From positions 14,662 to 78,661 of the forward strand of contig JAGAKF010000057.1 of NCBI GenBank assembly GCA_017625835.1: a stretch of DNA of 64,000 nt, in the 5' to 3' direction. Made by a program: the position numbers and the translations under genes. The notes under the pieces are model-generated. The model was not told where the DNA came from. It did no database searches and worked only from the letters and a program-made list of their open reading frames with translations. Of the stretch, positions 1,466 to 19,189 are shown piece after piece. The DNA comes from Clostridia bacterium (lineage in GTDB: Bacteria > Bacillota > Clostridia > Oscillospirales > Acutalibacteraceae). Each line of letters begins with the position of its first letter. Position 1 is the stretch's first letter.

Positions 1466-1572
1466 TATAACCTCTTGTAAATTAAAGTTAAAAATTCAGC
1501 AATAACCTGCATTAATACTGTTTACAGAATTGTACCATATCTGTATAGAAAAATCTACAACATTCGACTATT

Positions 1573-1588
1573 CGGAGTGCAAGGGATT
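1573..1588. repeat. 15/16-nt direct copy of the tRNA-Ser 3' end (candidate distal att site)
   Basis: Direct comparison with 19223-19238. Confidence 0.5.
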
Positions 1589-1695
1589 TTGTCCCGGCGC
1601 TGCCCGCGCCTTTCGCCTCGCTTCGCTCGTTGCCCCGTCGGCAGAAACAGTCCACCGGACTGTTTCTTTCCGCAAACTTCGTTTGCTCCCTCCTT

Positions 1696-1711
1696 GTTCG
1701 AATCCCTTGCT
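1696..1711. repeat. 16/16-nt inverted copy of the tRNA-Ser T-arm/acceptor 3' segment
   Basis: gttcgaatcccttgct equals the tRNA sense strand GTTCGAATCCCTTGCT, in inverted orientation relative to the tRNA gene. Confidence 0.5.
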
Positions 1712-1725
1712 TTCAAAATCTAATC

Positions 1726-1770
1726 AAAAAAGTAAAGGTAGCTCCTTTCGGAACTACCTTTACTTTTTTT
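1726..1770. terminator. bidirectional intrinsic terminator hairpin
   Basis: A-run, 11-bp perfect stem agtaaaggtag/ctacctttact (1731-1741 / 1754-1764), then a T7 run. Confidence 0.6.
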
Positions 1771-1796
1771 GTGTTTACAGCTTAAAATGGCAACAA
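1765..1796. repeat. 32-bp direct repeat copy 1 (TTTTTTGTGTTTACAGCTYAAAATRGCAACAA)
   Basis: 30/32 identical to 2765-2796, offset exactly 1000 bp. Confidence 0.8.
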
Positions 1797-2135
1797 TCAT
1801 AAATTATCAATATCAGATTTGAAAATTTCAACATAACACTGACTACCATTATATAAGCTATCAGTTGTTGCTTCAATCTTTGACAATAGTTCGGTTGTAT
1901 TTACATCAAATTGCAGATGCTCAATTTCTTCAGGAAGTTCGTTCCTTGCAATACAAATAAATTCCCCTTTATCCCAATCAATATCGAAGCTTGTAACAAT
2001 TGTTGTTCCGTCTGAAATATCGAAAAATTTTTCTTCATTGTCTATAAAAGATTCATACAAAAATTCAAATAATGCCTCTTTTCCAATTTTAATTATACGA
2101 TATTTATTATCGGGTATTCTTTTGTTTTCATTCAT
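1797..2135 (-). CDS. hypothetical strongly acidic 112-aa protein
   Basis: ORF 4 nt downstream of the four-helix-bundle gene. By my count it has about 25 D/E against 11 K/R. No recognisable motif. Confidence 0.6.
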   Translation of the reverse strand: MNENKRIPDNKYRIIKIGKEALFEFLYESFIDNEEKFFDISDGTTIVTSFDIDWDKGEFICIARNELPEEIEHLQFDVNTTELLSKIEATTDSLYNGSQCYVEIFKSDIDNL

Positions 2136-2139
2136 AAAA

Positions 2140-2499
2140 TCAACACCTTACTTTATCAATGCTTTCCTTTAAAGTTTTACAACTTGAAATTAACATTCTT
2201 CTGATTCTACCACAAAGATTTCTGTACTTTTTATAAGTAAGCTCATCTATTGCATTTGTATTAAATAGGAGTTTTAACCAGCCTTCTGTTTCACTGCATT
2301 CTTTCAAAGAAATCTCAAATTTAGAAAGCATATCAGCTTTGCTTTGACCATAATTTGCTTCACGAATATTCGCATAAACACTGCTTGAACTTTTGCGAAT
2401 TTGAAATATAGTGTTTGACGAAGCTTTAATATTTTGGCAAAGTAATTCTATATCCGTCGCTAACCGTTCAGAATACATAAGCAGATAATTAGGAGACAT
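2140..2499 (-). CDS. four-helix-bundle protein (23S rRNA intervening-sequence protein / DGR Avd-like family)
   Basis: Family-typical core ...IRKSSSSVYANIREANYGQSKADMLSKFEISLKECSETEGWLKLL... Start placed at the ATG at 2499 (MSPNYLL) behind RBS AAGGAAG and a consensus promoter. The longer track ORF to 2748 runs through a non-coding repeat array. Confidence 0.75.
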   Translation of the reverse strand: MSPNYLLMYSERLATDIELLCQNIKASSNTIFQIRKSSSSVYANIREANYGQSKADMLSKFEISLKECSETEGWLKLLFNTNAIDELTYKKYRNLCGRIRRMLISSCKTLKESIDKVRC

Positions 2500-2521
2500 A
2501 TAACCACTTCCTTTTATAGTG

Positions 2522-2550
2522 ATTATACTATAAAGTTTTGCTAAAATCAA
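2522..2550 (-). promoter_or_regulatory. sigma-A type promoter of the four-helix-bundle gene
   Basis: On the minus strand: TTGATT, 17-nt spacer, TATAAT, about 20 nt upstream of the RBS. Confidence 0.6.
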
Positions 2551-2559
2551 TGCGTAGCA

Positions 2560-2716
2560 TTGTATATCATCAATTCCAAAGGAATTGCATATCATCAACT
2601 TCGCAAGAAGTTGTATATCATCAAGCCGACAGAAATACACACCTGCGGTGTGATGAGATACAAGGGCAGCATTGCCGCCCTTGGTGATATACACGCTGAC
2701 GCGTGATGATATACCA
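2560..2716. repeat. array of a 14-bp motif: 3 direct copies TTGYATATCATCAA plus 3 inverted degenerate copies, interleaved with mini-palindromes
   Basis: Direct copies at 2560-2573, 2585-2598 and 2611-2624. Inverted copies at 2651-2663, 2681-2694 and 2704-2716. Spacers are small palindromes (aattccaaaggaatt, acttcgcaagaagt, gggcagcattgccgccc, aagcctgtcggctt). Confidence 0.8.
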
Positions 2717-2733
2717 AGCCTGTCGGCTTGGAT

Positions 2734-2770
2734 AAAAAAATCCGACAAGTCGAAACTTGTCGGATTTTTT
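2734..2770. terminator. bidirectional intrinsic terminator hairpin
   Basis: A7 run, 11-bp perfect stem atccgacaagt/acttgtcggat, then a T6 run. Confidence 0.6.
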
Positions 2771-2796
2771 GTGTTTACAGCTCAAAATAGCAACAA
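2765..2796. repeat. 32-bp direct repeat copy 2
   Basis: 30/32 identical to 1765-1796. Confidence 0.8.
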
Positions 2797-2920
2797 GTCA
2801 AATGACCGTTTTAAATCCAGAGTTTGTCGCTTCTTTTGAAGCAAATGATAATATCGCACATTCGACCTTTCTCTTATAATAAAGTAAAATGTAATTACCA
2901 AGAAAAGAGGAGACGATCTT

Positions 2921-3085
2921 ATGTTTAATAGAAAGAAAAAAATCAAAATTAAACTTGACAGCTTTGAATGTAACTTACTTATCAACGGTATGAATGAGTT
3001 TCGCAATATGCTTTTGGCGGAGGACTTGCCCACTGAGGATGTTGACGAACTGCTTTTAAAACTCATTGATATTTATGAAAAGTAA
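2921..3085 (+). CDS. small hypothetical protein (54 aa, MFNRKKKIKIKLDSFECNLLINGMNEFRNMLLAEDLPTEDVDELLLKLIDIYEK)
   Basis: Not in the ORF track because it is under 60 aa. ATG preceded by RBS AGAGGAG. Its stop overlaps the RBS of the next ORF. Confidence 0.5.
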   Translation: MFNRKKKIKIKLDSFECNLLINGMNEFRNMLLAEDLPTEDVDELLLKLIDIYEK

Positions 3086-3098
3086 GGAGGTTGAATAT

Positions 3099-3371
3099 AT
3101 GTCGAATGTTATTGAAGAATTGTATTACGGCAATCTTGAACCGCAGGAACTGACGACGGAAATTACACCCAAGCTGAAAAAGAAGCTGAGTTCACTTGCA
3201 AAGAAAGAGGAAGAGCTGACAGCTATGCTCCCCGAAAAGGAAAAAGAGTTGTTTGCAAATTATGTGAATTCTCACAATGAATTTTCGAGTATAAGTAATT
3301 CGGACAGCTTCATATCAGGCTTCCGGCTCGGCGCGAGATTTGCATACGATACATTTGTTGAAAGAAAGTGA
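3099..3371 (+). CDS. hypothetical 90-aa protein common in Clostridial mobile elements
   Basis: ATG at 3099 behind RBS AAGGAGG (MSNVIEELYYGNLEPQE...), followed by a terminator. Confidence 0.6.
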   Translation: MSNVIEELYYGNLEPQELTTEITPKLKKKLSSLAKKEEELTAMLPEKEKELFANYVNSHNEFSSISNSDSFISGFRLGARFAYDTFVERK

Positions 3372-3397
3372 AAACCCGATTATTTTTTATTATTGCT

Positions 3398-3431
3398 TAT
3401 AACCATCGACTTGCTCGGTGGTTATTTTTTA
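3398..3431 (+). terminator. intrinsic terminator
   Basis: Stem ataaccatcga/tcggtggttat with one mismatch, followed by T6. Confidence 0.5.
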
Positions 3432-3490
3432 TCATATAAATAACACCATCGTTTACCAATGCTTTTTGGCTCCAATGGTGTCATTTATGT

Positions 3491-3766
3491 TTATGCAGCA
3501 TGTATTTTTTCTTTAATTTCTAAGCCACCTTTAACAATAATCAGTAACTCTTCATTATTTACAACTTTAATACAATCAATAATTCTTCGTACAACAATAT
3601 CATCAAACTCTCCGAAAGAAATATCAAAGCCTTCAAGAAGTTTATTTATCCTTTTTATCTCTTTTTCTGTTTCTTCCTGTGCATCCATTTGTATCTGTAT
3701 TTTTTTCTTTTCTTCTCGCAAAGCAGTTATTTGTAAATAAAGTTTAGATATTTCGTCAAAATATCT
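3491..3766 (-). pseudogene. C-terminal remnant of a large serine recombinase (coiled-coil plus terminal beta region)
   Basis: ...ITALREEKKKIQIQMDAQEETEKEIKRINKLLE...FDDIVVRRIIDCIKVVNNEELLIIVKGGLEIKEKI resembles only the extreme C-terminus of Clostridial large serine recombinases. No catalytic or zinc-ribbon domains lie upstream. Confidence 0.5.
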
Positions 3767-3996
3767 TTTTCTGCTGTCATACCGTGCCAACTGAAAAAGC
3801 CTATTGCCGCAAATGGTGCCGCACCCAAGATGCACACCCAGCTTAAGGTTTCTATACCGAATAAAGGTTTGAGTAAAAAATACAAGCCTACGGCTACACC
3901 GCAGGCAAGAATGGAAAAGATAAATTGACGAAGTGACAGACCGAAGTAGACACTTTCGGTATAGTCACCGATTTCACGGTTTATCTTTACTTCCAA
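3727..3996 (-). pseudogene. PrgI family (VirB3-like) T4SS protein, C-terminus replaced at a deletion junction
   Basis: MEVKINREIGDYTESVYFGLSLRQFIFS...HGMTAEK is typical PrgI. After about nt 3766 the sequence diverges and stops, and no VirB4 gene follows. Confidence 0.55.
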
Positions 3997-4017
3997 ATAG
4001 CATCAGCTCCTTTGTCA

Positions 4018-4857
4018 TTAAAGTCCCATCATTTCCTTAACAACACGGTCAGCCATTTTGACTGTGCCGACAAGGACAATCATGTTAAAGATAAGCTCGC
4101 CTACATAACTCCACACCTGATTAACAGCCGCCGCAGCTTCATCAACTACGGGCGGAGAATCTGCAAACAGAGAGAAGATTATACAGCCGAGTACGATAAT
4201 TGCACCTTCCAGACAGACGGCGGTATATGACTTGATAAAGCTCTTACCAACCGATGAGGAAGGCTCACCTGCAAATGATGAAAGCGGAACGGGTGCAATA
4301 GCTGTGTACAGATATATTTTGAAAAATCTGCCGTACACAGTCATTATCATAATGAAGGACAGTACCGTAATGAAAAGACTGCCGATAAGAGTTACCGCCC
4401 ACAAGGGAACGCTTTCCCAAAATCCGCAATCTTCAATGGCCGTTACTATACTGTCGGGCAAAACCGTCTGACTTACTGCACTAAGTCCTGATGCCGCCAT
4501 TATTTTTGATATAATACCCTGTACAATATCTATAAGAGCCATCATCAGCTCAAGACCGTAGTCAATGGATGCTTTGGCAAGAATAAAACGGATGAACATT
4601 TTGACCGCTATTTCAGGCCTTTTCATTTCCGCAAAGCTGCCGCAGGTTTTCATAACACCGACAACAAAAAAGAGCACTAAAAGCGAATAACCTATCGCCT
4701 GTAATGCTCCGTGTATGTTTGTTATGACATTCCATATTTCACCGCCCTTGAACTGTTCCGGGGACTGTGTTATTAATAGCCATATTTCGCTTAATTTATC
4801 GTTCCAAGTTTCAAGTGCTTTTTGCAAGTTTTGGACAACCCAATTACTTGATTCCAT
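4018..4857 (-). CDS. VirB6/TrbL-like polytopic membrane protein of Firmicutes conjugative elements
   Basis: 279 aa from the ATG at 4857 behind RBS GGGAGGA (MESSNWVVQNLQKALETW...). It has multiple TM helices and lies directly upstream of PrgI, as in Clostridial ICE T4SS modules. Confidence 0.6.
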   Translation of the reverse strand: MESSNWVVQNLQKALETWNDKLSEIWLLITQSPEQFKGGEIWNVITNIHGALQAIGYSLLVLFFVVGVMKTCGSFAEMKRPEIAVKMFIRFILAKASIDYGLELMMALIDIVQGIISKIMAASGLSAVSQTVLPDSIVTAIEDCGFWESVPLWAVTLIGSLFITVLSFIMIMTVYGRFFKIYLYTAIAPVPLSSFAGEPSSSVGKSFIKSYTAVCLEGAIIVLGCIIFSLFADSPPVVDEAAAAVNQVWSYVGELIFNMIVLVGTVKMADRVVKEMMGL

Positions 4858-4919
4858 TGGATTCCTCCCTTCTTGAAAGGATAAAGGAGTATGCAAAAGT
4901 TATTGCATACCCCTTTTTG

Positions 4920-5426
4920 TTATACAGTTATTTGCTTAATTGTTTTTCCTGACTGTTTAGCATAATTGACTGTGTTTGCTGTTCCGCCTTTACTGCCGTT
5001 CCAAACAGCTACAACAATATCTGATTTATCAACCATATATTTGTTTCGCTTCATCATACAATCAGCAGTGTAGTGTGTTTGCAACAACGTTTCCTTATCA
5101 GAAGCAATAATGGTATTGAAATATCTATCTCGGTACTTTTCAGTCCACTTTGCTGCTTGTGTTTCGCACGGTATTGCACATTCCAATGTAATTTGCGGAT
5201 ATGTCTTTTTTAGGTCAAGAACTATCTCAGCACAAATCATATCAACGCCTAAAGCCATTCCTGATATAAAGTGAAATGCGTTTTCTTTCTCAATTAATTC
5301 TGTAATAGTGTTTTTAATTTGCATTTTTAAATTTTTACACATCTCACACTCCTCATTCCAAAGAAATTTAAGAGTTTGAGGTCTGTGACCCGTAAAACAT
5401 ACTGTTTTTTCGACTGAGTTTGACAT
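4920..5426 (-). CDS. SLOG-fold protein (YpsA/DUF1273 family)
   Basis: Motifs CFTGHRP, ISGMALGVD and NGSKGGTANTV. Start at the ATG at 5426 behind RBS GGAGGA. Confidence 0.7.
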   Translation of the reverse strand: MSNSVEKTVCFTGHRPQTLKFLWNEECEMCKNLKMQIKNTITELIEKENAFHFISGMALGVDMICAEIVLDLKKTYPQITLECAIPCETQAAKWTEKYRDRYFNTIIASDKETLLQTHYTADCMMKRNKYMVDKSDIVVAVWNGSKGGTANTVNYAKQSGKTIKQITV

Positions 5427-5564
5427 TTGTTTATCCTCCATATATTACTTACAATCAACTTGTTTGACTGTAAGTTAGAGTTTACACTATATAAAACAAA
5501 TAATTTGTCGAAAAAAGAATTCTTAATAAAAAAAGTCTGCAACATATTAGTTACAGACTTTTCA

Positions 5565-5894
5565 TTAGTTTCTACTTGCAGTTTTTATCAGCGTTTCAAG
5601 AATAGCATAAATTCTTTCTTGCTCTTCAACCGGAAGTTTAGCTATTTCCTCAAAGAGTTGTGGACCCTTTGCTTGATGACTATTTTTTATAACATCTTGG
5701 AATATATCATCAGCACTGCAACCGATACAGTTAATAATATTTACAAGTATGTTAAGGTTTACAGAACTTCTTCCGCTTTCAATCGAATAAATGTAATTTG
5801 TAGAAACATTAGCCGCTTCAGCAACTTGTTCCTGAGTTAAATGATTAAATTTTCGATATTCTTTAAGACGAGAGCCAATATGTTTTAGTACCAT
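5565..5894 (-). CDS. XRE-family helix-turn-helix transcriptional regulator
   Basis: LTQEQVAEAANVSTNYIYSIESG HTH motif. A terminator follows (aagtctg...cagactt plus T-run on the minus strand). Confidence 0.8.
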   Translation of the reverse strand: MVLKHIGSRLKEYRKFNHLTQEQVAEAANVSTNYIYSIESGRSSVNLNILVNIINCIGCSADDIFQDVIKNSHQAKGPQLFEEIAKLPVEEQERIYAILETLIKTASRN

Positions 5895-6012
5895 TCTTTC
5901 ATCTCCTTACTAACACTGTCAGTAAAATATTTTGACTAACAATGATAGTATAATGCAAATTTTAGCCTTTAAACACCAACCTACAGAATAATGATTTGCT
6001 TGATAGTCAGTG

Positions 6013-6285
6013 TTATCCGGTAATAAGGTCAAGAATTTCTTTTGCAAAGGTGATAATAATACCACCCGCAACGGTAAGAAAGCCGTTTGCTCTCTGTGAG
6101 GGGTCGTGTGACTTAAGCGAGAGACCGACCTGAACAACACCGAAGCCGAGAATAATCATACCGACAGCACGGATAAGACCGAAGATGAAGGTTGAAAGGT
6201 TATTAACAACAGCTACGGGATCATCAGCCGCAAAGGCTGTAAGACCGAGAGAGCAGAACATTGTGATGCAAAGGATAATGCCCAC
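6013..6285 (-). CDS. Maff2 family small membrane protein (ICE-associated)
   Basis: ...IRAVGMIILGFGVVQVGLSLKSHDPSQRANGFLTVAGGIIITFAKEI is the Maff2 signature as I recall it. GTG start with a weak RBS, so the N-terminus is uncertain. Confidence 0.65.
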   Translation of the reverse strand: MGIILCITMFCSLGLTAFAADDPVAVVNNLSTFIFGLIRAVGMIILGFGVVQVGLSLKSHDPSQRANGFLTVAGGIIITFAKEILDLITG

Positions 6286-6365
6286 ATTCTTTCTTATTGT
6301 GCTTATTCAAGGTTTTAACCGAAGATAAGATTGCAGAAAAAAGATACGAGGAAAAGTTTTTAATT

Positions 6366-6794
6366 TTATTTTGCAATGTTTCTTTCTTTTCTTTCAGGTT
6401 CATTAGAACTAACCTCACCTTCATCAATCTCATTATCCTTATGGTCCATATCAAGCAGAGCGTTAAGCTCAGCCAAGCGTTCACTTTTTTCTTTGAGCTC
6501 CTGCTCCTTCGGGAACGGTCTTTCGATTTCTGCCTTTGCATTTTCAATCTGCTTTTCTGTTTCAGCAAGCTTCTCCTTACAGGCTTCAAGTCTATCAGGC
6601 AGACGAGAGATGAGATTATCAAGTCGAGTGATATTACCCTGAATATCACCGCCGACTGAAATTCCCGACTTGTTCTGCTGAAGGAATTTCATCCTCATCA
6701 TACCGTACCTGCCAAGAGTAACGTTCTCCTCCTCCGGCAGTTTGATGTTCGGGATTTTGTAATCTCCGACCTGTCTGTACTGAATCTGTGACAT
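6366..6794 (-). pseudogene. chimeric ORF: TnpV-like N-terminus joined to the coiled-coil tail of a large ICE helicase/methylase-type protein
   Basis: MSQIQYRQVGDYKIPNIKLPEEE..GRYGMMRMKFLQQNK is TnpV-like. It is followed by ...ITRLDNLISRLPDRLEACKEKLAETEKQIENAKAEIERPFPKEQELKEKSERLAELNALLDMD. RBS AAAGGAG precedes the ATG at 6794. Confidence 0.4.
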
Positions 6795-7194
6795 TTTCAT
6801 TGCTCCTTTCGGTAATTTCTTTTTCTTTTGCACCTTCATCATAGTCAATTTCCTTTTCTTTGACAAATGTGCGATTCCTTTTTCTCTCATTTTTCTGAAG
6901 ATTTTTTACCGTGCTTTCAATTTCTCTTATACCCATTTCGGAAATGTCGCTCAGAGCATTACCGAGCTGTACAACAACCTCTTGAGTGTTGAAATTGAAA
7001 ATAGCCTTGAAATCTTCAAAATCATAGAATGAGTCAGCATCAAGACCGCATCTTTTCATCATCATATATCCGATACTGCTTGAAAGTGCATCCTTAAAGA
7101 TTACAGAGATATTGTCAGAGTCAAGCTCTTCAAGAAAACTGCCTGCCTTTACTTCTTCAAGAACAGATATATAGTCGAGGGCATTATCCTCAAG
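6646..7194 (-). pseudogene. internal fragment of a large ICE protein, lacking a start codon region
   Basis: The frame is open from 7194 with no upstream start (...EDNALDYISVLEEVKAGSFLEELDSDNISVIFKDALSSSIGYMMMKRCGLDADSFYDFEDFKAIFNFNTQEV...). It abuts the truncated surface-protein gene and overlaps the next ORF in another frame. Confidence 0.4.
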
Positions 7195-8443
7195 TCAGAT
7201 TTTTAACCGACTGCTGATTTGAGTAAGCAGTACCGCTTCCGTCCGCCTTGGTATTCCACCCGGTGAACTTGTAGCCTGTCTTTACAAAACCGTTGGAAGT
7301 TAAATTTTTAGCTTTATCGTAGGTCATTGACATTGAAGCTGTTGAGCCGCTTGTACTGCCGTTGCCGTAGAACTTAATGGTGTAGGTTATAGGTGACCAA
7401 CGGGCATAAAGATAAACAGTTGCACCGTTTGTTGTAGTCAGGTTCTTAACTGACTGCTTATTGGAATATGAGGTGCCGCTGTTATCTGATTTTGTATTCC
7501 AATGGGAGAACTTGTATCCCGTTCTTACATAGCCGTTGGCGTTAAGGTTTTTAGCAACATCAAACTTCATATTCATACTCGAAGTGGTACCACTTGTATA
7601 TCCGTTACCGTCAAAGGCTATGATATATGAATTGGTGTCCCACTGAGCATAAAGAGTAACAGTACCGCCGTTTGTGGTAGTCAGATTTTTAACTGACTGC
7701 TTGTTATAATAGCTTGTACCGCTTCCGTCAGCTTTTGTGTTCCACCCTGTAAAGTGATAACCCGACTTAACAAAACCGTTTGCAGTAAGGTTTTTGGCAA
7801 CATCATAGGTCATTGACATAGATGCGGTTGAGCCGCTTGTACTGCCGTTACCGTTAAACTTTATAGTGTAGGTATTAGGCTTCCATTGAGCATAAAGCGT
7901 CATACTCACATTGCCTGTTTTGATGCCTGAATTAAGGTCTGTTGGCTTAATCGTGTTGTCGCTTTGGCTGAAGGTTGTGCCGCCCGATGAAGTAGTGCCC
8001 CAAGACTTGAAGGTATATCCCGTCTTGTAAAGACCAAAGGTACCGGCATTTGTAAGACCGTTATCCTTTGTTTTGTTATATGTCCAAGTTTGAATATACT
8101 TTGAGCTGTCAGCTTCCTTATACACTACCTTTGATGAAAGATAATATGTGTCGGAGCTGATTGAGCCCCCGTTAGCATTGAAGCTGACCTTCAATTTATA
8201 CGGGGACCACTGAGCATAAAGATTAACGGTTGCACCGTTAGTTTTGGTAAGATTTTTAACTGACTGCTTATTACTGTACGATGTGCCACTGCCATCAGCT
8301 TTGGTATTCCACCCGGTAAAATAATGACCTGTCTTTGTAAATCCGTTGGCGGTGAGCTTCTTTGCCGTACCGTAGGACATACTCATTGATGCCGTTGAGC
8401 CGCTTGTACTGCCGTTACCGTTAAATTTAATTGTATATGTTAT
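7190..8443. repeat. tandem coding repeats (about 225-240 bp units) of the surface protein
   Basis: Repeats are visible at protein and DNA level. Units 1, 3 and 5 are the most similar. Confidence 0.75.
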
Positions 8444-9304
8444 ATTCTGTGTTTCGTTGTAGGCTATACCAACACCGTAACCTTTGGTAAGGATTGTATT
8501 GAAGGTTGCTCTTGATGAACTGCCTATCTTTGATGCGGCTGTCCATAATCCCTGACCGTCGGGAGTGTATAACTTATTGGGCCATATACGGTTAGTGTAC
8601 GGAGCAATAAATCCCCAAGTTGAGGATGTTCCGTTACTTGAGCCGCCGTCAGAGCTTCCGCCCAAAACACTTCGTCCGCAATATGCCATTTCGGTTACGG
8701 TCAATGCCTGATATTCACCTGCAAGGCAAACATCAAAAAGAGGCTCAATAATTACCTTATCACCGTAAACCATATTGGAAACGCTGCCCACACCGAGTTT
8801 TGAAAGCACCTGATTGATATTGGCTTCATAGCTCTGCCATGTTTCAACACCACTCGGATTGGGAAGGTCTTTTACAAAGCTGATATTTGCTTCTTTGTAG
8901 CAGTTAGTGGTGTTGTAGGTAGTCGAAAGTGTGGAGTTTCTGTTGGAAATAACGCCCAGCTTATTATACTTCTTTGAAAACTTCGCAGAGGTTGAATAAG
9001 CGTGGTCACCGTTTGAGGTATCTCTGTAAACATCAATTACCTTTGTAACCTTCATGTTACCGTCCGCATCAACGGCAGAAAAGCGGTAGCCTACAACACA
9101 GTTTGAGTCTTCGGTGTCACGGATAACATAACCCGTGTTACTGCCGTTTACGGCATCAATACTGCCGCCTGCACTGTCACCGTCCCAAGAAAGGGCAAAG
9201 GCTGAAATGGGAATTGATGAAAAGAGAGTGAGAATAACAAGAAAAATTGATAATACTCTTTTAATAACTATCATCCTTTCCGATAAAAAGTAAAAGCCCG
9301 ACAT
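7190..9304 (-). CDS. secreted surface protein with Listeria-Bacteroides (Flg_new/InlB B-type) repeats, truncated within the fifth repeat
   Basis: Signal peptide (the probable true start is M11 at 9274, MIVIKRVLSIFLVILTLFSSIPISAFA), an N-terminal domain of about 250 aa with unknown function, then 5 repeats of about 75 aa (YTIKFNGNGSTSGSTASMSM.Y...L..NGF.KTGY.FTGWNTKADGSGTSYSNKQSVKNLT..NG.TV.LYAQW). The ORF stops after ...SVKNLT, in mid-repeat, with no wall anchor. Confidence 0.7.
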   Translation of the reverse strand: MSGFYFLSERMIVIKRVLSIFLVILTLFSSIPISAFALSWDGDSAGGSIDAVNGSNTGYVIRDTEDSNCVVGYRFSAVDADGNMKVTKVIDVYRDTSNGDHAYSTSAKFSKKYNKLGVISNRNSTLSTTYNTTNCYKEANISFVKDLPNPSGVETWQSYEANINQVLSKLGVGSVSNMVYGDKVIIEPLFDVCLAGEYQALTVTEMAYCGRSVLGGSSDGGSSNGTSSTWGFIAPYTNRIWPNKLYTPDGQGLWTAASKIGSSSRATFNTILTKGYGVGIAYNETQNITYTIKFNGNGSTSGSTASMSMSYGTAKKLTANGFTKTGHYFTGWNTKADGSGTSYSNKQSVKNLTKTNGATVNLYAQWSPYKLKVSFNANGGSISSDTYYLSSKVVYKEADSSKYIQTWTYNKTKDNGLTNAGTFGLYKTGYTFKSWGTTSSGGTTFSQSDNTIKPTDLNSGIKTGNVSMTLYAQWKPNTYTIKFNGNGSTSGSTASMSMTYDVAKNLTANGFVKSGYHFTGWNTKADGSGTSYYNKQSVKNLTTTNGGTVTLYAQWDTNSYIIAFDGNGYTSGTTSSMNMKFDVAKNLNANGYVRTGYKFSHWNTKSDNSGTSYSNKQSVKNLTTTNGATVYLYARWSPITYTIKFYGNGSTSGSTASMSMTYDKAKNLTSNGFVKTGYKFTGWNTKADGSGTAYSNQQSVKNLT

Positions 9305-9333
9305 TAAGCCGAGCTTTCATAGAGAATTTAATT

Positions 9334-10080
9334 TTAATGTGTGTGACAAGTTCTTGCTTTAACTGTCTTACCGCAATCGGGGCATTTTGTATCAACGGTA
9401 AATCTTACGCAAGTACCCTTTGAGCCGTCACCGATTTTCTTGGTGCAATCGTCACAGTATTTATTCGGGTCTTTCTTTTCTGAATACTTTGGACACTTTG
9501 AAATATCGTAGCAGGCGTTACCCCATTCATCAATAGCATAGAAGCTCTTACAGGAATGTGAGCCACAAAGGGAACATCCCTTCTTTTCAAGACTTACAAT
9601 AAATGAATGTGTTTCTTTGCTTTCACAGTGATGACCTGACTTGCCACAGGAGTATTCCTTAACGCTGTCATTATCTGAAGCAGGTGAACCTTCCTCCGTT
9701 GTCGGGGTCTTCTGCGTTGTTACAGGCTTGGGATTTTCCTCTTTTACCGTTGTCTGCGGCTTTGTTGTCGAGGGTGCCTTGGTCGTTGTGTCAGGCTCTG
9801 TTACTGCTTCGTCAATGGAGAGAATGTTTTTATCATCGTTTTCGATTTCCTGCACATTCTCCTCTGTTGTAGCTTCGTCTGTAATGTCCTCAAGAATGAG
9901 GTTTGTATCCGTTGTTTCCTCGCTCACTGTTGTTTCGGGGAATGTTGTTTCATCAGCCTTTCTGTCGCTGACTCCCTTGACAACAATTCCTACGATTATG
10001 AGACATACAACAATGATTGCGGCTATAAGGCCGGCAATAATCTTTTTGTAATTATCTCCCTTAACTGCTAAAATTGTCAT
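9334..10080 (-). CDS. membrane-anchored protein with a T/E/P-rich linker and a C-terminal Cys/His-rich domain
   Basis: N-terminal TM helix (IIAGLIAAIIVVCLIIVGIVV), a low-complexity linker, then 13 Cys in the last ~105 aa, including CSLC, CDDC and CPDC pairs. Confidence 0.7.
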   Translation of the reverse strand: MTILAVKGDNYKKIIAGLIAAIIVVCLIIVGIVVKGVSDRKADETTFPETTVSEETTDTNLILEDITDEATTEENVQEIENDDKNILSIDEAVTEPDTTTKAPSTTKPQTTVKEENPKPVTTQKTPTTEEGSPASDNDSVKEYSCGKSGHHCESKETHSFIVSLEKKGCSLCGSHSCKSFYAIDEWGNACYDISKCPKYSEKKDPNKYCDDCTKKIGDGSKGTCVRFTVDTKCPDCGKTVKARTCHTH

Positions 10081-10099
10081 TTTGAATTACCTCCTGAAT

Positions 10100-10579
10100 T
10101 TAAAATTTTTCACTTAATACTGATACAATTTCTATGGGTACATTTGCAGTATCAATTTTCTGACCTGCGAAATATATCGGTACTGAAATTGTGTAGTGAA
10201 TTACAATCTCAAGCTCATTTTCCTGTCTGAAACTCATCTCAGGATATGTCATTGAGTATTTGAGATTTCCTTCACTGTCATAACTATATAGCCGTGAAGC
10301 TGTTTCGTCTAATGTGCAAAAGTCACACAGAGCATCTGTGAACTCCTGCGGATTAACACTTTCGGTGTAGTCATTGCCTTGCTTGATGCTGTCATATATC
10401 CTTGTGGCATTCTGTGTTACAAAACTGTCAAGTACAACTTTACTGTTTTCTCTTGAAGTATCAATAAGGGAAACGGCAGAAGCATAGACAAATATACCAG
10501 AAAATATCATTACGATTACAAGAATGAGTACACAAACGGGTACATAGCTTTCAGCCTTTTTGTTTTTAAGTATATTCAT
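10100..10579 (-). CDS. pseudopilin-like (TadE/F-type) minor pilin candidate
   Basis: The N-terminus MNILKNKKAESYVPVCVLILVIVMIF shares the (R/K)AE.Y plus hydrophobic-helix signature with the pilins. Confidence 0.55.
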   Translation of the reverse strand: MNILKNKKAESYVPVCVLILVIVMIFSGIFVYASAVSLIDTSRENSKVVLDSFVTQNATRIYDSIKQGNDYTESVNPQEFTDALCDFCTLDETASRLYSYDSEGNLKYSMTYPEMSFRQENELEIVIHYTISVPIYFAGQKIDTANVPIEIVSVLSEKF

Positions 10580-10588
10580 TTATTGCAC

Positions 10589-10999
10589 CTACTTCCAATA
10601 CTTTTCGGAAATACCCGACCTCGTTGTACTAACAGTTACGGGTATCTTAAATGCACCGACACCTCTTACATAGGTATGAACAGACACTGTGACTGTCATT
10701 TTGTCACCAAGCTGTACTCTCTCATAGGTCGAGTTGTAGTATTCATCAGCGGATGCAACTACATCAAACTCAAAAAATGAGCTTCTGAGTTCTTCGCATC
10801 TTTCGTCAAACTCCTCACCGAAGGAGCCTTCCGAGGTTGCAGTTTCAATGAGAAAGCCGCTAACTGTGTCCAAATCCTGCCGCAGCATAAAAAAGGTGTA
10901 AATATTCAATGTTACAACAAGCACCATCATAAGTGCAATTATGCCAACGGCAATATCAATATAGCCTTCAGCTTTACGGTTTGAAATAATCTTTTTCAT
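10589..10999 (-). CDS. pseudopilin-like minor pilin candidate
   Basis: Start at the ATG at 10999 behind RBS AGGAGG. MKKIISNRKAEGYIDIAVGIIALMMVLVV carries the same signature. Confidence 0.55.
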   Translation of the reverse strand: MKKIISNRKAEGYIDIAVGIIALMMVLVVTLNIYTFFMLRQDLDTVSGFLIETATSEGSFGEEFDERCEELRSSFFEFDVVASADEYYNSTYERVQLGDKMTVTVSVHTYVRGVGAFKIPVTVSTTRSGISEKYWK

Positions 11000-11012
11000 A
11001 TTCATTACCTCC

Positions 11013-11882
11013 TTAACCGAAAAGAACACCGACAGAGCCCATTATCTGTGCGATAATAACCACAACATAAATGAGCATAAAGCAGAAAAGAAGGCTCATA
11101 GAAAGCTTCTTTACTTTCCTTGGTATCTTCTGTGCTTCAAGTCTTAATCTCTGTCTGTGGATGTCTGAAAACTTCATAGCAAGGCTCGACCAATATACAG
11201 GATTGCTGTCGCCTCGTATCATACCGATAAAACCACGGCAAACATCACTCATCATACTTGAGCCGACTCTTGCTTCAAGTCTTGTGATTGCCGCTTCCTG
11301 ATTACCCGAATTCATATCGGCTATTGTAATATCAAGCTCGTGCTTGAGTTCAGGCCCGGCATTACGGGAATATTCTGTAAGAATAGATAAAAGGCTTCTT
11401 TCGTGCTTCAAGGTCTTTTCTACATTGGCTACAAGCCTCGGTAATTCGTATTCAATCTTCGCTCTTTTCTCCTTTATCTTTCCTCCTACACTTTTCATAT
11501 TTATTCTGTAAAGAACGAAAGCAAGGAATATGACAACAGGACAAAGTATGGGGAAGATGAAATACAAGGGCACTGCAAACACACCGATAATGAGTGCTTT
11601 TACAATAGCGTTTGCCTTAAACATTTCGGGTGTAATATTCATCTGAGCAGTACGAAGGTCTGTTTCAAGCTCTATCCTTTTAAACTCATTCATAGGAATA
11701 CGCTTTGCTATTGCACCTGCAAAGCCGCCGAGCCATACATCAATACTGCTTGTCTTTTCCTGATGCTGTTTGGCAAGGTTTGTTATAGCCTTTGATGTTC
11801 TCATATACGGTACTTTAAAAGCATCTGCGAGGATAAAATAAAAGGCGATACCGAATAGCACACCAACAATAATCTTAATCAT
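11013..11882 (-). CDS. tadC: type II secretion system F-family membrane protein (TadC-like)
   Basis: 289-aa polytopic protein immediately downstream of the TadB-like gene and the CpaF ATPase. Confidence 0.7.
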   Translation of the reverse strand: MIKIIVGVLFGIAFYFILADAFKVPYMRTSKAITNLAKQHQEKTSSIDVWLGGFAGAIAKRIPMNEFKRIELETDLRTAQMNITPEMFKANAIVKALIIGVFAVPLYFIFPILCPVVIFLAFVLYRINMKSVGGKIKEKRAKIEYELPRLVANVEKTLKHERSLLSILTEYSRNAGPELKHELDITIADMNSGNQEAAITRLEARVGSSMMSDVCRGFIGMIRGDSNPVYWSSLAMKFSDIHRQRLRLEAQKIPRKVKKLSMSLLFCFMLIYVVVIIAQIMGSVGVLFG

Positions 11883-11896
11883 TTCTTTTATCCTCC

Positions 11897-12820
11897 TTAT
11901 GCCTTGTATTCAACGGGTTTAGTGAATTTGAGAAGGAACATATATGTCACGATAATAACCGCACCGCATGTTCCTAATACAATCTTACCCGGTGTTTCGT
12001 ATATGAGCGTATGAAACCAATCCTTGTTAAGCACATACAAAAGAGGGATATTGCCCACAACAAGACCTACCATTGTGTAATACTCTGTTCTTACTGCCGC
12101 CATCATTGTTGAAAGCTCACTGTTTATGATTTGAACATCCTGCAACTTATCAACAATGGGATGAAGTGTGTCTATAAGAGCTCTGTCGTCCTGACAACGA
12201 ATAAGAGCATCACACCATTCACGGAATATCTCGTCATCAACCTTTTCCTTAAGATTACGGAGTGCCTGCTTCACATTAGATGAAACTGTCAGAGCATCAC
12301 CGAGAAAAGCATTAAAATGCTCCCTTAACGGCGGCTTTATTGATATGATGTTTTCCTCGACTGCAAAGATAATATTCTCGTTTCTTTCGTAAGATGTTGT
12401 AATCGTTGAAAGAACACTTTGAAGTTCCTCTTTAATATGCTTATCATAATGTGAAAGACTGTTTCTGACATAGATGAAAGGTAAAAGGGCAAAGGCTACC
12501 GATAAGGCAGGAAGAAGGAATATGTTGTCAATGAGAACTGCAACTACCGCACCTGCCGCAAAAAGAACGAGTGAAGCACAGCAGACAAGAGCAAATTTAT
12601 TCTCCTGTCCCATAGCTGCCAACGCCGTCTGTGTATATGCAAGCTTTGAGCCGAGGCTCTTTTTCTTTTTACCTGCTCTCATATTTCTTGCTTTTTCTCT
12701 TAATGTTACTTTAGGCGTTGTAAGCCTCATAAGGTCCTCGGTAATCTGCTGCGGAGTCAGATTAAGAAAACAAACTATTGCTACAATGAGCAATAATGAA
12801 GAAATCATAGGCATAATCAC
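11897..12820 (-). CDS. tadB: type II secretion system F-family membrane protein (TadB-like)
   Basis: 307-aa polytopic protein. It overlaps the CpaF stop by 4 nt. Confidence 0.7.
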   Translation of the reverse strand: MIMPMISSLLLIVAIVCFLNLTPQQITEDLMRLTTPKVTLREKARNMRAGKKKKSLGSKLAYTQTALAAMGQENKFALVCCASLVLFAAGAVVAVLIDNIFLLPALSVAFALLPFIYVRNSLSHYDKHIKEELQSVLSTITTSYERNENIIFAVEENIISIKPPLREHFNAFLGDALTVSSNVKQALRNLKEKVDDEIFREWCDALIRCQDDRALIDTLHPIVDKLQDVQIINSELSTMMAAVRTEYYTMVGLVVGNIPLLYVLNKDWFHTLIYETPGKIVLGTCGAVIIVTYMFLLKFTKPVEYKA

Positions 12821-14133: not shown

Positions 14134-14146
14134 TTATATCACTCCT

Positions 14147-15611: not shown

Positions 15612-15613
15612 TT

Positions 15614-16300: not shown

Positions 16301-16312
16301 TGTTTTTCATTC

Positions 16313-16356
16313 CTTTGAAAAAAGTGGCGGAGCAGCCACTTTTAAACCACTCCGCC
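16313..16356 (-). terminator. intrinsic terminator/attenuator between the pilin genes and the assembly genes
   Basis: On the minus strand: aaaagtgg-ctgctccg-ccactttt followed by tttc. An alternative stem is ggcggag/ctccgcc. Confidence 0.55.
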
Positions 16357-16374
16357 TGAAAATTTTAAGTACCG

Positions 16375-16641: not shown

Positions 16642-16665
16642 ATTGAATTACCTCCTAAAATTTAA

Positions 16666-16932: not shown

Positions 16933-16957
16933 ATTGAATTACCTCCTAAAAATTTAT

Positions 16958-17224: not shown

Positions 17225-17247
17225 ATCGAATTACCTCCTTGAATTTT

Positions 17248-17514: not shown

Positions 17515-17534
17515 AAATAAATACCTCCTGAGAT

Positions 17535-17816: not shown

Positions 17817-17860
17817 AATAATTTTCCTTTCTTTTTTCAAATAAAAATAAGAGTAAAAGA

Positions 17861-19149: not shown

Positions 19150-19189
19150 CATAAAAACACCGAAACCCCTTGTAAAATCAAGGGGTTTC
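19150..19189 (-). terminator. intrinsic terminator downstream of tRNA-Ser
   Basis: 11-bp perfect stem gaaaccccttg/caaggggtttc (19162-19172 / 19179-19189), followed on the minus strand by GGTGTTTTTAT. Confidence 0.65.

Follow-up and report, generated by a model that had tools for sequence, protein, structure and literature searches.

A conserved 26-nt motif closes small gene cassettes and a decayed conjugative element behind tRNA genes in Acutalibacteraceae

Two repeats and a 1-kb cassette in a tRNA-Ser(GGA) island

The window, by which we mean the whole 64,000-nt stretch of Clostridia bacterium DNA that was analyzed, contains the direct repeats TTTTTTGTGTTTACAGCTTAAAATGGCAACAA (1765-1796) and TTTTTTGTGTTTACAGCTCAAAATAGCAACAA (2765-2796). 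Direct reading bears out the preliminary description of this DNA in that the two are identical at 30 of 32 positions and start exactly 1000 bp apart. A repeat search of the window grouped both as one family, D16, at 94%, and a search for their 26-nt core with up to 3 mismatches returned these two copies as the sole matches in 64 kb, with an expectation of 0.00 over 100 shuffles. Both repeats are preceded by an A-run, a stem-loop and a T-run, and the flanks of the two copies share no similarity on either side. Read in the sense of the cargo genes, the features follow one another as tRNA-Ser, a decayed element, motif copy 2, hairpin 2, a long "class A" hairpin, a four-helix-bundle gene, an acidic gene, motif copy 1, hairpin 1 and a pseudo-tRNA-Ser remnant (Table 1).

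Table 1. Features of the island, in order of window position
Feature	Position	Strand	Basis or remark
GC-rich, strongly folding pseudo-tRNA element	1571..1725	-	fold z-score -8.9
Hairpin 1: A-run, stem-loop, T-run	1726..1770	.	-23.3 kcal/mol; terminator-like site in scan
Motif copy 1, GTGTTTACAGCTTAAAATGGCAACAA	1771..1796	+	distal end of 1-kb cassette
Cargo gene 2: 112-aa acidic protein	1797..2135	-	stop codon touches repeat 1
Cargo gene 1: 119-aa four-helix-bundle protein (23S rRNA-IVS protein/Avd-like family)	2140..2499	-	PF05635 2.9e-18; TIGR02436 3.5e-20
Promoter-like site TTGATT-17-TATAAT	2522..2550	-	10/12 consensus positions; for both cargo genes
Class A long branched hairpin	2548..2733	.	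fold z-score -10.7; tRNA-proximal part of cassette unit
Hairpin 2: A-run, perfect 10-bp stem, T-run	2734..2770	.	proximal end of cassette unit
Motif copy 2, GTGTTTACAGCTCAAAATAGCAACAA	2771..2796	+	distal terminal arm (P'-like) of neighboring conjugative element
Decayed integrative conjugative element, body	2797..19194	-	gene content and relative L041/L136
Large serine recombinase remnant, C-terminal 114 aa	3491-3835		C-terminus common with L041/L136 protein; DNA 95.8% identical
Proximal terminal arm, TTGTTGCCTTTTTAGGCGTTAATTA	19195..19219	+	imperfect inverted copy of motif; abuts tRNA-Ser
tRNA-Ser(GGA)	19220..19311	-	tRNA scan; CCA end is the integration point

The cassette was originally described as having a promoter of its own, an Avd-like four-helix-bundle gene and an acidic 112-aa gene ending against repeat 1, and all of these held up. 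Nothing significant was found for the four-helix-bundle protein in PADLOC or PHROGs, and the acidic protein had no match in Pfam, NCBIfam, PADLOC or PHROGs. The acidic protein has 128 homologous clusters in Clostridia, and its AF2 model is confident (pLDDT 87.8) with no fold match in PDB. As regards a diversity-generating retroelement, the one other gene of the cassette has no RT domain, the neighboring genes do not encode RTs, and the repeat search of the window contained no TR/VR-like pair. A four-helix-bundle gene was also seen directly behind a tRNA in a more distant genome (L148).

In the class A hairpin three TTGTATATCATCAA arms are paired to as many complementary arms, and small hairpins that vary lie between them. 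When it was aligned with 14 copies from other genomes the arms proved invariant, and the small hairpins carried compensating substitutions across the aligned copies. The pseudo-tRNA element ends in AAAATCCCTTGCACTCCGAA (the reverse complement of 1571-1590), a degenerate copy of the tRNA-Ser(GGA) 3' end. L015 has a homolog of this element behind the true tRNA-Ser and L040 has one behind tRNA-Arg(ACG), and both end in ~19-20 nt of the 3' end of the tRNA in question. In the window the element is probably where the tRNA-Ser island as a whole has its distal boundary. The element matched no Rfam family and was not called by the tRNA/tmRNA scan. Rfam 15 gave no match at gathering score across the entire window, and at E-value thresholds the 1400-3000 interval gave sub-threshold, terminator-driven matches only.

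Both hairpins had been reported as perfect 11-bp stems, which is not what we find, since the stems are 10 bp plus A/T extensions. Hairpin 1, the left junction partner of motif copy 1, has a 10-bp stem with one mismatch, 3 further pairs and a TTTC loop, while hairpin 2 pairs TCCGACAAGT with ACTTGTCGGA around a CGAA loop (-20.0 kcal/mol). The two stems are indeed unrelated in sequence, as stated earlier. Each is a GC-containing stem-loop downstream of a gene, with a folding energy of -20 to -23 kcal/mol and 6-7 T following it; hairpin 1 was called by the terminator scan and is shaped like a bidirectional intrinsic terminator. The hairpins, whose UUCG/GNRA-type loops lie on the cargo-sense strand, are best read as intrinsic terminators.

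Distribution of the motif and shuffling of its surroundings

Exact matches to the 26-nt motif occur at 46 loci in ~40 Acutalibacteraceae/Clostridia species, and with up to 6 mismatches there are 60+ copies, which stand in same-orientation arrays of 2-4. The edges of the motif are sharp, with a T-run at -5..0, 26 conserved positions and noise from +27. A T-rich tract lies upstream at all 64 scored motif sites and a strong hairpin at 58 of them. The motif always comes after a variable-sequence hairpin and T-run, and always at the far end of a unit. No match was found in IMG/VR viral contigs, and in JGI metagenome contigs the motif appeared in only four contigs of ~1 kb each, which were uninformative. 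In agreement with the earlier remark that the repeat resembles no known att, attC, CRISPR or IS end, we obtained no attC, dif, CRISPR or IS end match among those testable. Literature searches returned no description of the motif, nor of CCA-end targeting by a serine recombinase.

Several other identities for the motif were considered and discarded. As a plus-strand promoter (TTTACA with a downstream -10) it has no consistent -10, and the transcript would run antisense into the cargo. As coding sequence it fails on stop codons in the flanks, the variable positions being fixed by the search pattern. The copy number is far too low for a DNA-uptake sequence, the hairpin arms are not conserved as an oriT would have it, and there is no intron beyond the 26 nt for the 5' end of a group IIC intron placed after a terminator. 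The resemblance of ATRGCAAC to the tRNA T-loop ATTCGAAC is probably coincidental (1-nt offset, 4-5/8 matches).

The small units span 0.24-1.8 kb, carry no recombinase and share one layout of terminator hairpin, long structured hairpin, promoter, cargo and motif. Their cargo varies and consists of four-helix-bundle genes, membrane proteins, enzymes or nothing. Around 20 related cassettes have a common promoter, TTGTAA...TGTGATATAAT, and ~20 cassettes share a 19-nt 5'-UTR box, the inverted complement of which stands next to the motif as a 3' box. A gene-less unit of 240 bp (motif, long hairpin, terminator hairpin) was found in L006, L009, L017 and L046, with 95-98% identity where compared (L009 and L046 against L017); it adjoins tRNA-Thr, tRNA-Arg and tRNA-Gln in L006, L009 and L046.

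Identical cargo is found behind differing hairpins and left contexts, and identical left context before differing cargo. Hairpins are also shuffled relative to long hairpins (L021 versus L037) and long hairpins relative to promoters (L021 versus L033), and this shuffling at the hairpin, long-hairpin and promoter boundaries indicates that recombination is not confined to the motif. The preliminary description had pointed to conserved structure and flanks with a varying stem sequence. Being terminator-like and themselves shuffled, the hairpins do not resemble conserved recombination-site components.

The cassette of the window, too, has moved. L019 matches positions 1765-2771 with 96.6% identity over 1009 nt; there the unit sits directly on tRNA-Arg(CCG), and homology to the window breaks off exactly where the T-run ends. 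Hairpin 2, unchanged or nearly so, directly abuts tRNA-Arg(CCG) in L019, L001, L024 and L032 and tRNA-Gln(CTG) in L018, and the junction motif|GTCAAATGACCG at copy 2 recurs in L027 and L041. Other cassettes lie between motif copies elsewhere, and relatives carry the same cassette with a single copy, the far side being a tRNA gene in L019. A simple local tandem duplication of an intergenic segment, which would account for the exact 1000-bp spacing and for there being just two copies in the window, is already refuted by the motif's presence at many loci with unrelated flanks in ~40 species and by the cassette in L019; with the flanks of the window copies also unrelated on both sides, we assign it next to no probability. 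As originally proposed, this is not ordinary intergenic DNA; mobile or shuffled cassettes have the motif as their conserved boundary.

Ends of the conjugative element and tRNA CCA junctions

The element that separates the cassette from tRNA-Ser is 16.4 kb long and carries genes for DUF6809, PrgI, TrbL-like, YpsA, HTH and TnpV proteins, a Flg_new surface protein, a T2SSE ATPase, a prepilin peptidase and ParB, as well as four tandem 88-aa genes. Next to motif copy 2, two plus-strand genes (2921-3085 and 3099-3371) are oriented away from it. At its other end the proximal arm matches copy 2 at 17 of 25 positions, and motif copies with T at the variable Y position at 18 of 25; the match has a shuffle p of about 9e-5 and is the joint-best non-self match in the 64-kb window. 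Ten genomes carry the exact arm, in each case against TGG, where a tRNA has its CCA end; the tRNA may be that for Ser, Cys, Gln(CTG), Gln(TTG), Thr or Pro (six species in the ten genomes). In two genomes the element body is 96-97% identical over 4.6-6.8 kb, at tRNA-Gln(CTG) in the one and tRNA-Gln(TTG) in the other. The partner arm predicted for the variant element end TTCGTTCGTCATATTGGAACGAAATCA was not found in the loci examined.

These ends change the reading of the two window repeats as attL and attR flanking an inserted cassette. The view that they bound a mobile cassette stands, whereas their pairing as the attL and attR of one element does not, because copy 1 closes the four-helix-bundle/acidic cassette and copy 2 closes the 16-kb conjugative element, whose true partner site is the imperfect inverted copy at 19195-19219 beside tRNA-Ser.

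Anchoring on tRNA genes extends to the arrays in general. Of 47 loci, 31 have a tRNA at a distance of one unit past the last motif, in every case on the strand of the cargo, and junctions without a conjugative element read hairpin-T-run|TGG in 30 of 30 cases. Given enough sequence, arrays begin exactly at the CCA end of a tRNA gene, and they use at least 8 tRNA species, the conjugative element at least 6. No circular joint and no true occupied/empty pair with identical flanks was recovered. An exact-protein look-up of the neighboring methyltransferase gave same-species contigs only and no empty site; three of the four other methyltransferase contigs end within ~330 nt of the gene on the island side.

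As a conserved RNA- or expression-level 3'-UTR element (for stability, a 3'-derived sRNA or protein binding), with cassettes reshuffled by homologous or illegitimate recombination between repeated expression modules such as promoter, UTRs, motif and terminators, the motif would be well placed in the small units, where it always falls between the cargo stop codon and a terminator with cargo-sense UUCG/GNRA loops, as copy 1 does in the window. The ~20 cassettes with shared promoter and 19-nt 5'-UTR box would permit 5'/3' pairing, the motif may form a short stem (GCT...RGC) with T12:R19 remaining able to pair, and module boundaries besides the motif are shuffled too. Beside copy 2, however, the element genes point away and thus leave no 3' UTR there, and the motif is kept in gene-less units. 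Nor does such a role explain the inverted copy at the other end of the element or the exact CCA junctions at six tRNA species, and 26-45 nt is short for RecA-dependent exchange. We consider this explanation rather unlikely.

A candidate enzyme comes from the intact relative L041/L136, in which serine recombinase genes of 551, 291 and 516 aa occupy the element position. The 551-aa protein carries Resolvase, Recombinase and Zn_ribbon_recom domains (PF00239 2.8e-31, PF07508 5.8e-21, PF13408 4.7e-14) and is encoded ~700 nt from the motif. L041/L136 is the sole intact example that physically links a serine recombinase to the motif. Its recombinase has one other close homolog, in L137 (82% identity), where no motif lies within 3 kb and the element continues past the region examined. 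A search by regex only, which is a weak test, found serine and tyrosine recombinase signatures neither in the window nor in the 8-kb loci except L041.

We also weighed a single-stranded DNA system, in which an HUH-type (IS200/IS605, IS91, Helitron-like) or integron-type enzyme would read the folded hairpin and insert beside T-runs. Such a system would suit the kept hairpin structure with varying stem sequence and an invariant end sequence adjoining it. Helitron and IS91 elements have a conserved 5' end, a 3'-end hairpin and no target duplication, and the units have the same topology; the long hairpins further contain GCGAAGC-type mini-hairpins, which are very stable in ssDNA. We judge it quite improbable all the same, as neither the window nor the loci showed a gene for an HUH transposase, Rep or IntI, no second subterminal hairpin lies beside the motif, there are no attC core sites (RYYYAAC/GTTRRRY), the hairpins resemble normal terminators and have RNA-typical loops, and the conjugative element has inverted end arms and serine recombinases.

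The reconstructed sites of the element are attL TTTTT-TG-TGTTTAC and attR TTAATTA-TG-GCGG, with element-free junctions TTTTT-TG-GCCC. The joined ends comprise 25 + TG + 25 nt, ~50 bp with imperfect dyad symmetry, and the attP/attB reconstruction leaves only TG in common. Sole sharing of the TG dinucleotide is the pattern expected for a large serine recombinase. It contrasts with the 6-8 bp of identical overlap that tyrosine recombinases need, and so counts against a Xer/dif-like or other tyrosine-recombinase core in which a variable 8-nt spacer separates two short inverted arms, TGTTTACA and TRGCAACA, the cassettes being counterparts of pdif modules or IMEX elements. With its weak palindrome and its variable positions (13, 16-17 and 19) clustered in the middle, the motif fits such a core, and its reverse complement has a TGTAAAC that is presumably also present in the XerD arm of Firmicute dif. 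The other arm, however, is unlike the XerC side of dif, regex gave no tyrosine recombinase signature near any array, and the arrays stop at a tRNA CCA and not at a further copy of the site. A core of this kind appears very improbable.

Possible mechanism and comparison with known systems

Taken together, these data incline us, if only slightly, to the reading that the motif forms the conserved distal terminus of integrative units inserting exactly at tRNA 3' CCA ends in Acutalibacteraceae, the small units being non-autonomous and arriving by accretion. The 26-nt motif is most likely a recombinase-binding arm. We infer that a serine recombinase acts on it with crossover at the TG, and that accretion is the route taken by the small cassettes. 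The autonomous members would be conjugative elements whose ends are the motif and its imperfect inverted copy; joined, these ends would form an attP-like imperfect palindrome of ~52 bp, ...TTAATTA-TG-TGTTTACAG... The target would be ...terminator-TTTTT-TG-G(tRNA), the shared TG being the last two bases of CCA. The small units would be non-autonomous, CIME-like passengers, gained or lost when an element excises via the outer or the inner motif junction, and accretion would build the arrays behind tRNAs.

For the window this mechanism predicts particular joints. The circular joint of the element would read ...TTTAGGCGTTAATTA-TG-TGTTTACAGCTCAAAATAGC..., and that of the cassette (hairpin-2 T-run and motif 1) ...ACTTGTCGGATTTTT-TG-TGTTTACAGCTTAAAATGGCAACAATCATAA... 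The cassette-empty site, with the hairpin-1 T-run next to motif 2 and the element, would be ...CTACCTTTACTTTTT-TG-TGTTTACAGCTCAAAATAGCAACAAGTCAAATG..., and the element-empty site, with hairpin 2 next to tRNA-Ser, ...CGGATTTTT-TG-GCGGAGAGCAAGG...

Some observations run against this model. The small units have no inverted proximal arm, and the motif|hairpin joint is attL-like, which by normal large-serine-recombinase rules is no integration substrate. The presumed attB is not sequence-specific, its right arm being any of at least 6 tRNA ends and its left arm a variable terminator hairpin; for a site-specific serine recombinase, an attB made of a variable hairpin plus any tRNA end would be unusually loose.

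A review (PMC5704250) describes CIMEs, accretion in tandem, and elements of serine recombinases that have very short flanking repeats. The arrays resemble CIME/ICE accretion of the ICESt1/ICESt3 type (PMC5704250) in that recombinase-less units stand in tandem with an ICE at one chromosomal target, bounded by copies of the element's attachment sequence, and that alternative excision could in principle mobilise or leave units. In the window the cassette, with only the four-helix-bundle and acidic genes, lies between two motif copies and adjoins the element at tRNA-Ser, its sites being of the distal-arm type only. The known cases differ in that they rely on tyrosine integrases and that the tRNA 3' end forms part of their att repeats. 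In the present arrays a 26-nt motif from the element end, with no relation to the tRNA, is what is repeated, the junction falls exactly after CCA at many tRNA species, and the units are tiny (0.24-1.8 kb), promoter-bearing and without the element's proximal arm.

With Tn4451/Tn5397-type transposons and phage or ICE serine integrases the element shares a Resolvase + Recombinase + Zn-ribbon recombinase at one end, and with large-serine-recombinase elements an inferred attP of ~50 bp with imperfect dyad symmetry and a putative core of only 2 bp common to attP and attB. Unlike the generic CCA and variable terminator seen here, those elements usually have one specific target, often within a gene. 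The ssrA islands of Dehalococcoides reportedly combine a tandem arrangement with a serine recombinase. The stacking of units behind a stable-RNA gene recalls these genomic islands, which target ssrA (tmRNA; PMC3146451).

Likeness to integron arrays lies in the small same-orientation units with diverse cargo, in the conserved site beside a variable-sequence hairpin and in the single platform. The arrays here differ from those of integrons in lacking IntI and attC R/L core boxes, in having a tRNA 3' end for a platform and in their host, a Firmicute; to our knowledge integrons are essentially unknown in Firmicutes. An IntI tyrosine integrase was found neither by Pfam/NCBIfam on the neighboring genes nor by regex on the window and the 46 loci, the latter a weak test. 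Each boundary consists of A-run, hairpin, T-run and GTGTTTACAG..., conserved on one side and with no flanking GTTRRRY/RYYYAAC pair. Integron cassettes are mostly promoterless and expressed from Pc, whereas the cassettes here carry their own promoters and terminators.

The tycheposons of Prochlorococcus reportedly accumulate at tRNA genes as arrays of integrative elements and of modules with cargo alone, cargo being shuffled from strain to strain, and their att sites are said to be partial tRNA sequences. We know of no tycheposon equivalent of the 26-nt motif, of the exact CCA junction or of the promoter/terminator unit architecture. Tycheposons are the subject of a preprint (bioRxiv 10.1101/2020.12.28.424599).

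What we describe looks like a previously undescribed, integron-like gene-capture system. More tentatively, and as a possibility we rather doubt than believe, Acutalibacteraceae may carry an integron-like platform on which a serine recombinase stacks self-expressed cassettes at tRNA CCA ends and conjugative elements with the same end motif ferry them between species. If this holds, it would be a cassette-array system in Firmicutes that uses a serine rather than a tyrosine recombinase and tRNA 3' ends as its platform. Precise integration directly behind the CCA of many different tRNA genes would be an unusual property for a recombinase, as the known tRNA-targeting integrases cross over inside one specific tRNA, and such an enzyme may be of interest to mobile-element biology and genome engineering. 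The motif, the inverted arm and the CCA junction would together give a handle on accessory-gene flux in poorly cultured ruminant gut Clostridia, and the cassettes would provide a genomic context for the enigmatic four-helix-bundle ("23S rRNA IVS protein") genes that are recurrent cargo here.

The boundary motif and its tRNA anchor

The repeats, their 1000-bp spacing, the hairpins with mutually unrelated stems, the two-gene interval and its promoter are all present in the sequence as the preliminary description had them. Within the window the 26-nt core of the repeats (GTGTTTACAGCTYAAAATRGCAACAA, hereafter the motif) has no third match at ≤3 mismatches, with none expected by chance. A search beyond this DNA, as had been proposed, found the core in 46 loci (L-numbers below) from ~40 Acutalibacteraceae, Oscillospiraceae or 'Clostridia' MAG species, mostly of the ruminant gut, this count coming from an exact-match scan of one genome per species; more than 60 copies were obtained when six mismatches were allowed. 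A T-rich tract lies immediately 5' of the motif in all 64 scored copies and is preceded by a strong hairpin in 58 of them, with stems of many unrelated sequence types. The conservation profile passes from a T-run (-5 to 0) through 26 conserved positions to noise from +27, with leftover variation at positions 13, 16-17, 19 and 26; this conservation is partly a product of the site-finding method, which its sharp edges are not. The motif is a family-wide boundary element. Local duplication as the source of the two repeats is excluded by the unrelated contexts of the 46 loci and by L019, in which the same cassette is found at tRNA-Arg(CCG).

Features of the window and of related loci (coordinates refer to the window unless a locus is named)
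Feature	Location	Strand	Details
32-nt repeats (motif copies 1 and 2)	1765-1796 and 2765-2796		differ at two positions; starts 1000 bp apart; repeat family D16
Hairpin 1	1726-1770		A-run, stem-loop, T-run, then motif copy 1; fold -23.3 kcal/mol
Hairpin 2	2734-2770		A-run, stem-loop, T-run, then motif copy 2; fold -20.0 kcal/mol
Four-helix-bundle (4HB) gene, 119 aa	between motif copies	minus	PF05635 / TIGR02436
Acidic 112-aa protein gene	between motif copies	minus	no family match; stop codon touches copy 1
Promoter-like site	2550-2522		TTGATT-17-TATAAT; upstream of cassette genes
'Class A' branched long hairpin, 190 nt	2548-2733		upstream of cassette promoter; three TTGTATATCATCAA arms and complements; z = -10.7
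Decayed integrative conjugative element, ~16.4 kb	2797-19219		between motif copy 2 and tRNA-Ser
Element gene content	right of 2796		DUF6809, PrgI, TrbL-like, YpsA, HTH, TnpV, T2SSE ATPase, prepilin peptidase, ParB
Element terminal arm, 25 nt	19195-19219		TTGTTGCCTTTTTAGGCGTTAATTA; directly against TGG of tRNA-Ser
tRNA-Ser(GGA)	19220-19311	minus
'Pseudo-tRNA' elements	1571-1725; L015 2609-3011; L040 4090-4210		GC-rich, strongly folding
Shared promoter block and 5' box (examples)	L034 1500-1620; L037 4050-4130

Except at the conjugative-element junctions of the window, L027 and L041, the nearest gene right of the motif is encoded on the opposite strand and terminates 0-60 nt from it, so that the order in the cargo sense is stop codon, motif, terminator. 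Read in this sense the hairpin loops are for the most part UUCG or GAAA, and the hairpins are thus most simply interpreted as ordinary terminators.

In 31 of 47 loci a tRNA gene stands one unit past the last motif, at a distance of 190-2300 nt except in the window with its 16-kb element, and in most of the tRNA-less loci the available sequence ends first. The anchoring tRNA is on the cargo strand in every case and never on the other side of the array, and the species found are Arg(CCG), Gln(CTG), Gln(TTG), Ser(GGA), Thr(GGT), Cys(GCA), Lys(TTT) and Ala(CGC). All 30 junctions lacking a conjugative element read A-run, hairpin, T-run and then TGG, which places the beginning of the unit at the first base past CCA. 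The earlier suggestion of a site-specifically delimited cassette was right in spirit, the motif being the unit boundary in tRNA-anchored arrays, but the repeats do not form an attL/attR-like pair: they belong to two neighbouring units of such an array, and their hairpins are read as terminators.

Two further tRNA-related features were observed. In L040 a tRNA-Ala gene (3777-3852) lies inside the array, with a class C long hairpin before it and its own terminator after it, in the manner of cargo or of a second anchor. The pseudo-tRNA elements, each followed by its own terminator, end in ~19-20 nt of the nearby tRNA's 3' end (Ser, or Arg-ACG), and the Ser-type copies (window, L015) also start with inverted T-arm sequence. 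They gave no family match in Rfam; either a second integration system that overlaps tRNAs may have left them behind, or they may be tRNA-like RNAs.

Cargo and exchange among units

Different cassettes do sit between motif copies elsewhere, in same-orientation arrays of two to four copies spaced by 240-1800 bp (L017, L021, L037, L044, L046). Cargo is very diverse: units may be empty, hold a whole conjugative element, or encode a methyltransferase, small membrane proteins, lipoproteins or one of several distinct 4HB proteins. Further cargo genes resemble those for an acetyltransferase, a glyoxalase-like protein and a P-loop kinase, names that come from ORF reading and not from a family scan. One cargo was seen behind differing hairpins or left contexts, and one left context before differing cargo. 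The window unit (1765-2771) is 96.6% identical to L019 over 1009 nt, and homology stops precisely with the final T of hairpin 2, where L019 continues into its tRNA. A single-copy relative, as envisaged earlier, exists in that L019 has the cassette with one motif; its other side is the tRNA gene and the second motif is absent.

The 4HB gene of the window cassette is a member of the '23S rRNA intervening-sequence protein / Avd' family. Neither a reverse transcriptase nor a template repeat was found alongside it, and identity as a DGR was rejected on this ground. Homologues of the acidic protein form 128 clusters in Clostridia, every one unnamed. AF2 gave a confident model of the protein (pLDDT 87.8), which had no fold match in the PDB, and PADLOC and PHROGs searches returned no match. 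The gene pair recurs in L019 and in the more distant Clostridia contig L148; further acidic-protein homologues stand by themselves. In L148 (2400-3510) the pair lies directly behind tRNA-Arg. The ~130-nt direct repeats that bracket it open with CCAAAC and include a purine/pyrimidine long hairpin; the locus has no 26-nt motif, and no terminator separates tRNA-Arg from the 4HB gene. This arrangement hints that stable-RNA genes are a more general target of 4HB cassettes, as with 23S rRNA intervening sequences.

A gene-less unit of ~240 bp, consisting of motif, long hairpin and terminator hairpin, recurs in L006, L009, L017 and L046 (95-98% identity for L009 and L046 compared with L017), which suggests that these three parts are the minimal unit. 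It adjoins tRNA-Thr, tRNA-Arg and tRNA-Gln in L006, L009 and L046, and the same hairpin touches the tRNA every time. In these four loci the motif directly follows the long hairpin; in a second gene-less type (L031, L042, L043, right of the motif) its fusion point is 13 nt past the promoter's ...CCCGATTGTAA. Gene-less units could be expression sites that are empty or mobile units in minimal form.

Shuffling reaches beyond the motif: L021 and L037 have the long hairpin in common and differ in terminator, while L021 and L033 have cargo and promoter in common and differ in long hairpin. The class A long hairpin has 14 further copies in other loci, with invariant 14-nt arms (TTGTATATCATCAA and complement), differing numbers of arm-plus-mini-hairpin modules, and mini-hairpins, many of GCGAAGC type, that vary by compensating substitutions. 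Analogous long hairpins in other units are made of other short repeats (ATGAAGT, GTGAAGA, TGAATAA, ATGAAAT). Such structures could be RNAs, ssDNA promoters or origins, or protein array sites.

About 20 cassettes (L001-L046) share a promoter block, GGGCGGGACACCCGCAC-CCGATTGTAATTT...TGTGATATAAT, with a 5' box, CTCGAYAAATAAGAATTTG, behind it. This box is the inverted complement, with two central mismatches, of a 3' box, CAAATTCCAATTTATCKAG, located between cargo and motif in ~22 of 63 sites. The pair could serve mRNA-end pairing or be a second recombination-site pair flanking the cargo. The conserved promoter and paired UTR boxes, together with the small-unit layout, would suit a purely RNA-level role of the motif as a 3'-UTR element, a reading that fits small units; the genes beside copy 2, however, point away from it, and the CCA junctions are left without explanation.

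The conjugative element and its ends

The junction of the motif with GTCAAATGACCG is also present in L027 and L041, with three different left contexts in all. An intact relative (L041/L136) has three recombinase genes here: one encodes a large serine recombinase of 551 aa with Resolvase, Recombinase and Zn-ribbon domains and is located ~700 nt from the motif, and the other two lie behind it. Of the 551-aa gene's counterpart the window has only the last 114 codons (3491-3835), indicating that the window element is decayed.

At the far end the terminal arm is unchanged in ten genomes (window; L065, L155-L162) and lies at the tRNA CCA end every time. The tRNAs comprise six species, namely Ser, Cys (two genomes), Gln-CTG (three), Gln-TTG (two), Thr and Pro, and integration specificity seems to be for the end of a tRNA gene and not for one particular tRNA. 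Element bodies at tRNA-Gln(CTG) and tRNA-Gln(TTG) in two genomes are 96-97% identical over 4.6-6.8 kb, which argues for recent movement. The arm is an imperfect inverted motif, matching copy 2 at 17/25 positions and copies with T at the variable Y position at 18/25 (shuffle p ~9e-5); just one other non-self site in the window reaches 17/25. An RNA-level role leaves this inverted arm unexplained.

In a related element (L060, L066, L069, L070; left of a ParB homologue) another arm, TTCGTTCGTCATATTGGAACGAAATCA, preceded by a homologous hairpin, is fused to the tRNA TGG. It looks like a swapped putative recombinase-binding arm, and no partner motif for it was found among the loci compared. Within the window element, four tandem 291-bp repeats (16375-17538) each encode an 88-aa protein (MFKKIKSFFKG..., hydrophobic core) and adjoin the T2SSE ATPase and prepilin peptidase genes; these proteins may be pilin paralogues. 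The 243-bp repeats at 7154-8440, inside a 704-aa surface protein gene, correspond to Listeria-Bacteroides (Flg_new) repeat domains. Three same-species assemblies with the window's methyltransferase (L048, L050, L051) break within ~330 nt of that gene on the island side, and such breaks in independent assemblies are consistent with disruption by the island's repeated elements.

A proposed route of spread

When joined in silico, the element ends (...GGCGTTAATTA-TG-TGTTTACAGCT...) form an imperfect palindrome of ~52 bp. Element-free tRNA junctions follow the pattern ...hairpin-TTTTT-TG-G(tRNA), and the two observed element junctions read TTTTT-TG-TGTTTAC and TTAATTA-TG-GCGG. The deduced attP and attB thus have TG alone in common at the exchange point, the last two bases of CCA. 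Large serine recombinases use a ~50-bp dyad attP and a 2-bp core, while a tyrosine recombinase requires a longer identical overlap. Because dyad and core match the large serine recombinase pattern, for which we point to PMC5704250, the motif would be one recombinase-binding arm of the element. The attB deduced here, any tRNA end plus any terminator, is loose and atypical of this family. The 2-bp core that the two sites share speaks against a dif/Xer-like site, and a hairpin-guided ssDNA enzyme or integron-type recombination lacks any associated gene in the window and the related loci as well as the defining site features.

Small units have the motif arm and neither recombinase nor inverted arm. 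The least strained account of their spread would be cis-mobilisation through accretion, which is known for CIME/ICE tandems (PMC5704250). The element would insert between the tRNA and an existing unit; excision via the outer motif junction would then carry the unit along, and excision via the inner junction in a new host would leave it directly on the tRNA. The window order (tRNA-Ser, element, motif 2, cassette, motif 1) is the composite that this route demands. Accretion explains neither how new units originate nor how hairpins, long hairpins and promoters are exchanged.

The unit architecture and motif distribution are well supported, and the enzymology (serine recombinase, TG crossover, accretion) we infer from one intact relative and junction logic. 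Neither the motif nor targeting of CCA ends across tRNA species is described in the literature searched. Of the known kinds of system, we place it with serine-recombinase integrative elements and accretion arrays, and its outcome is integron-like.
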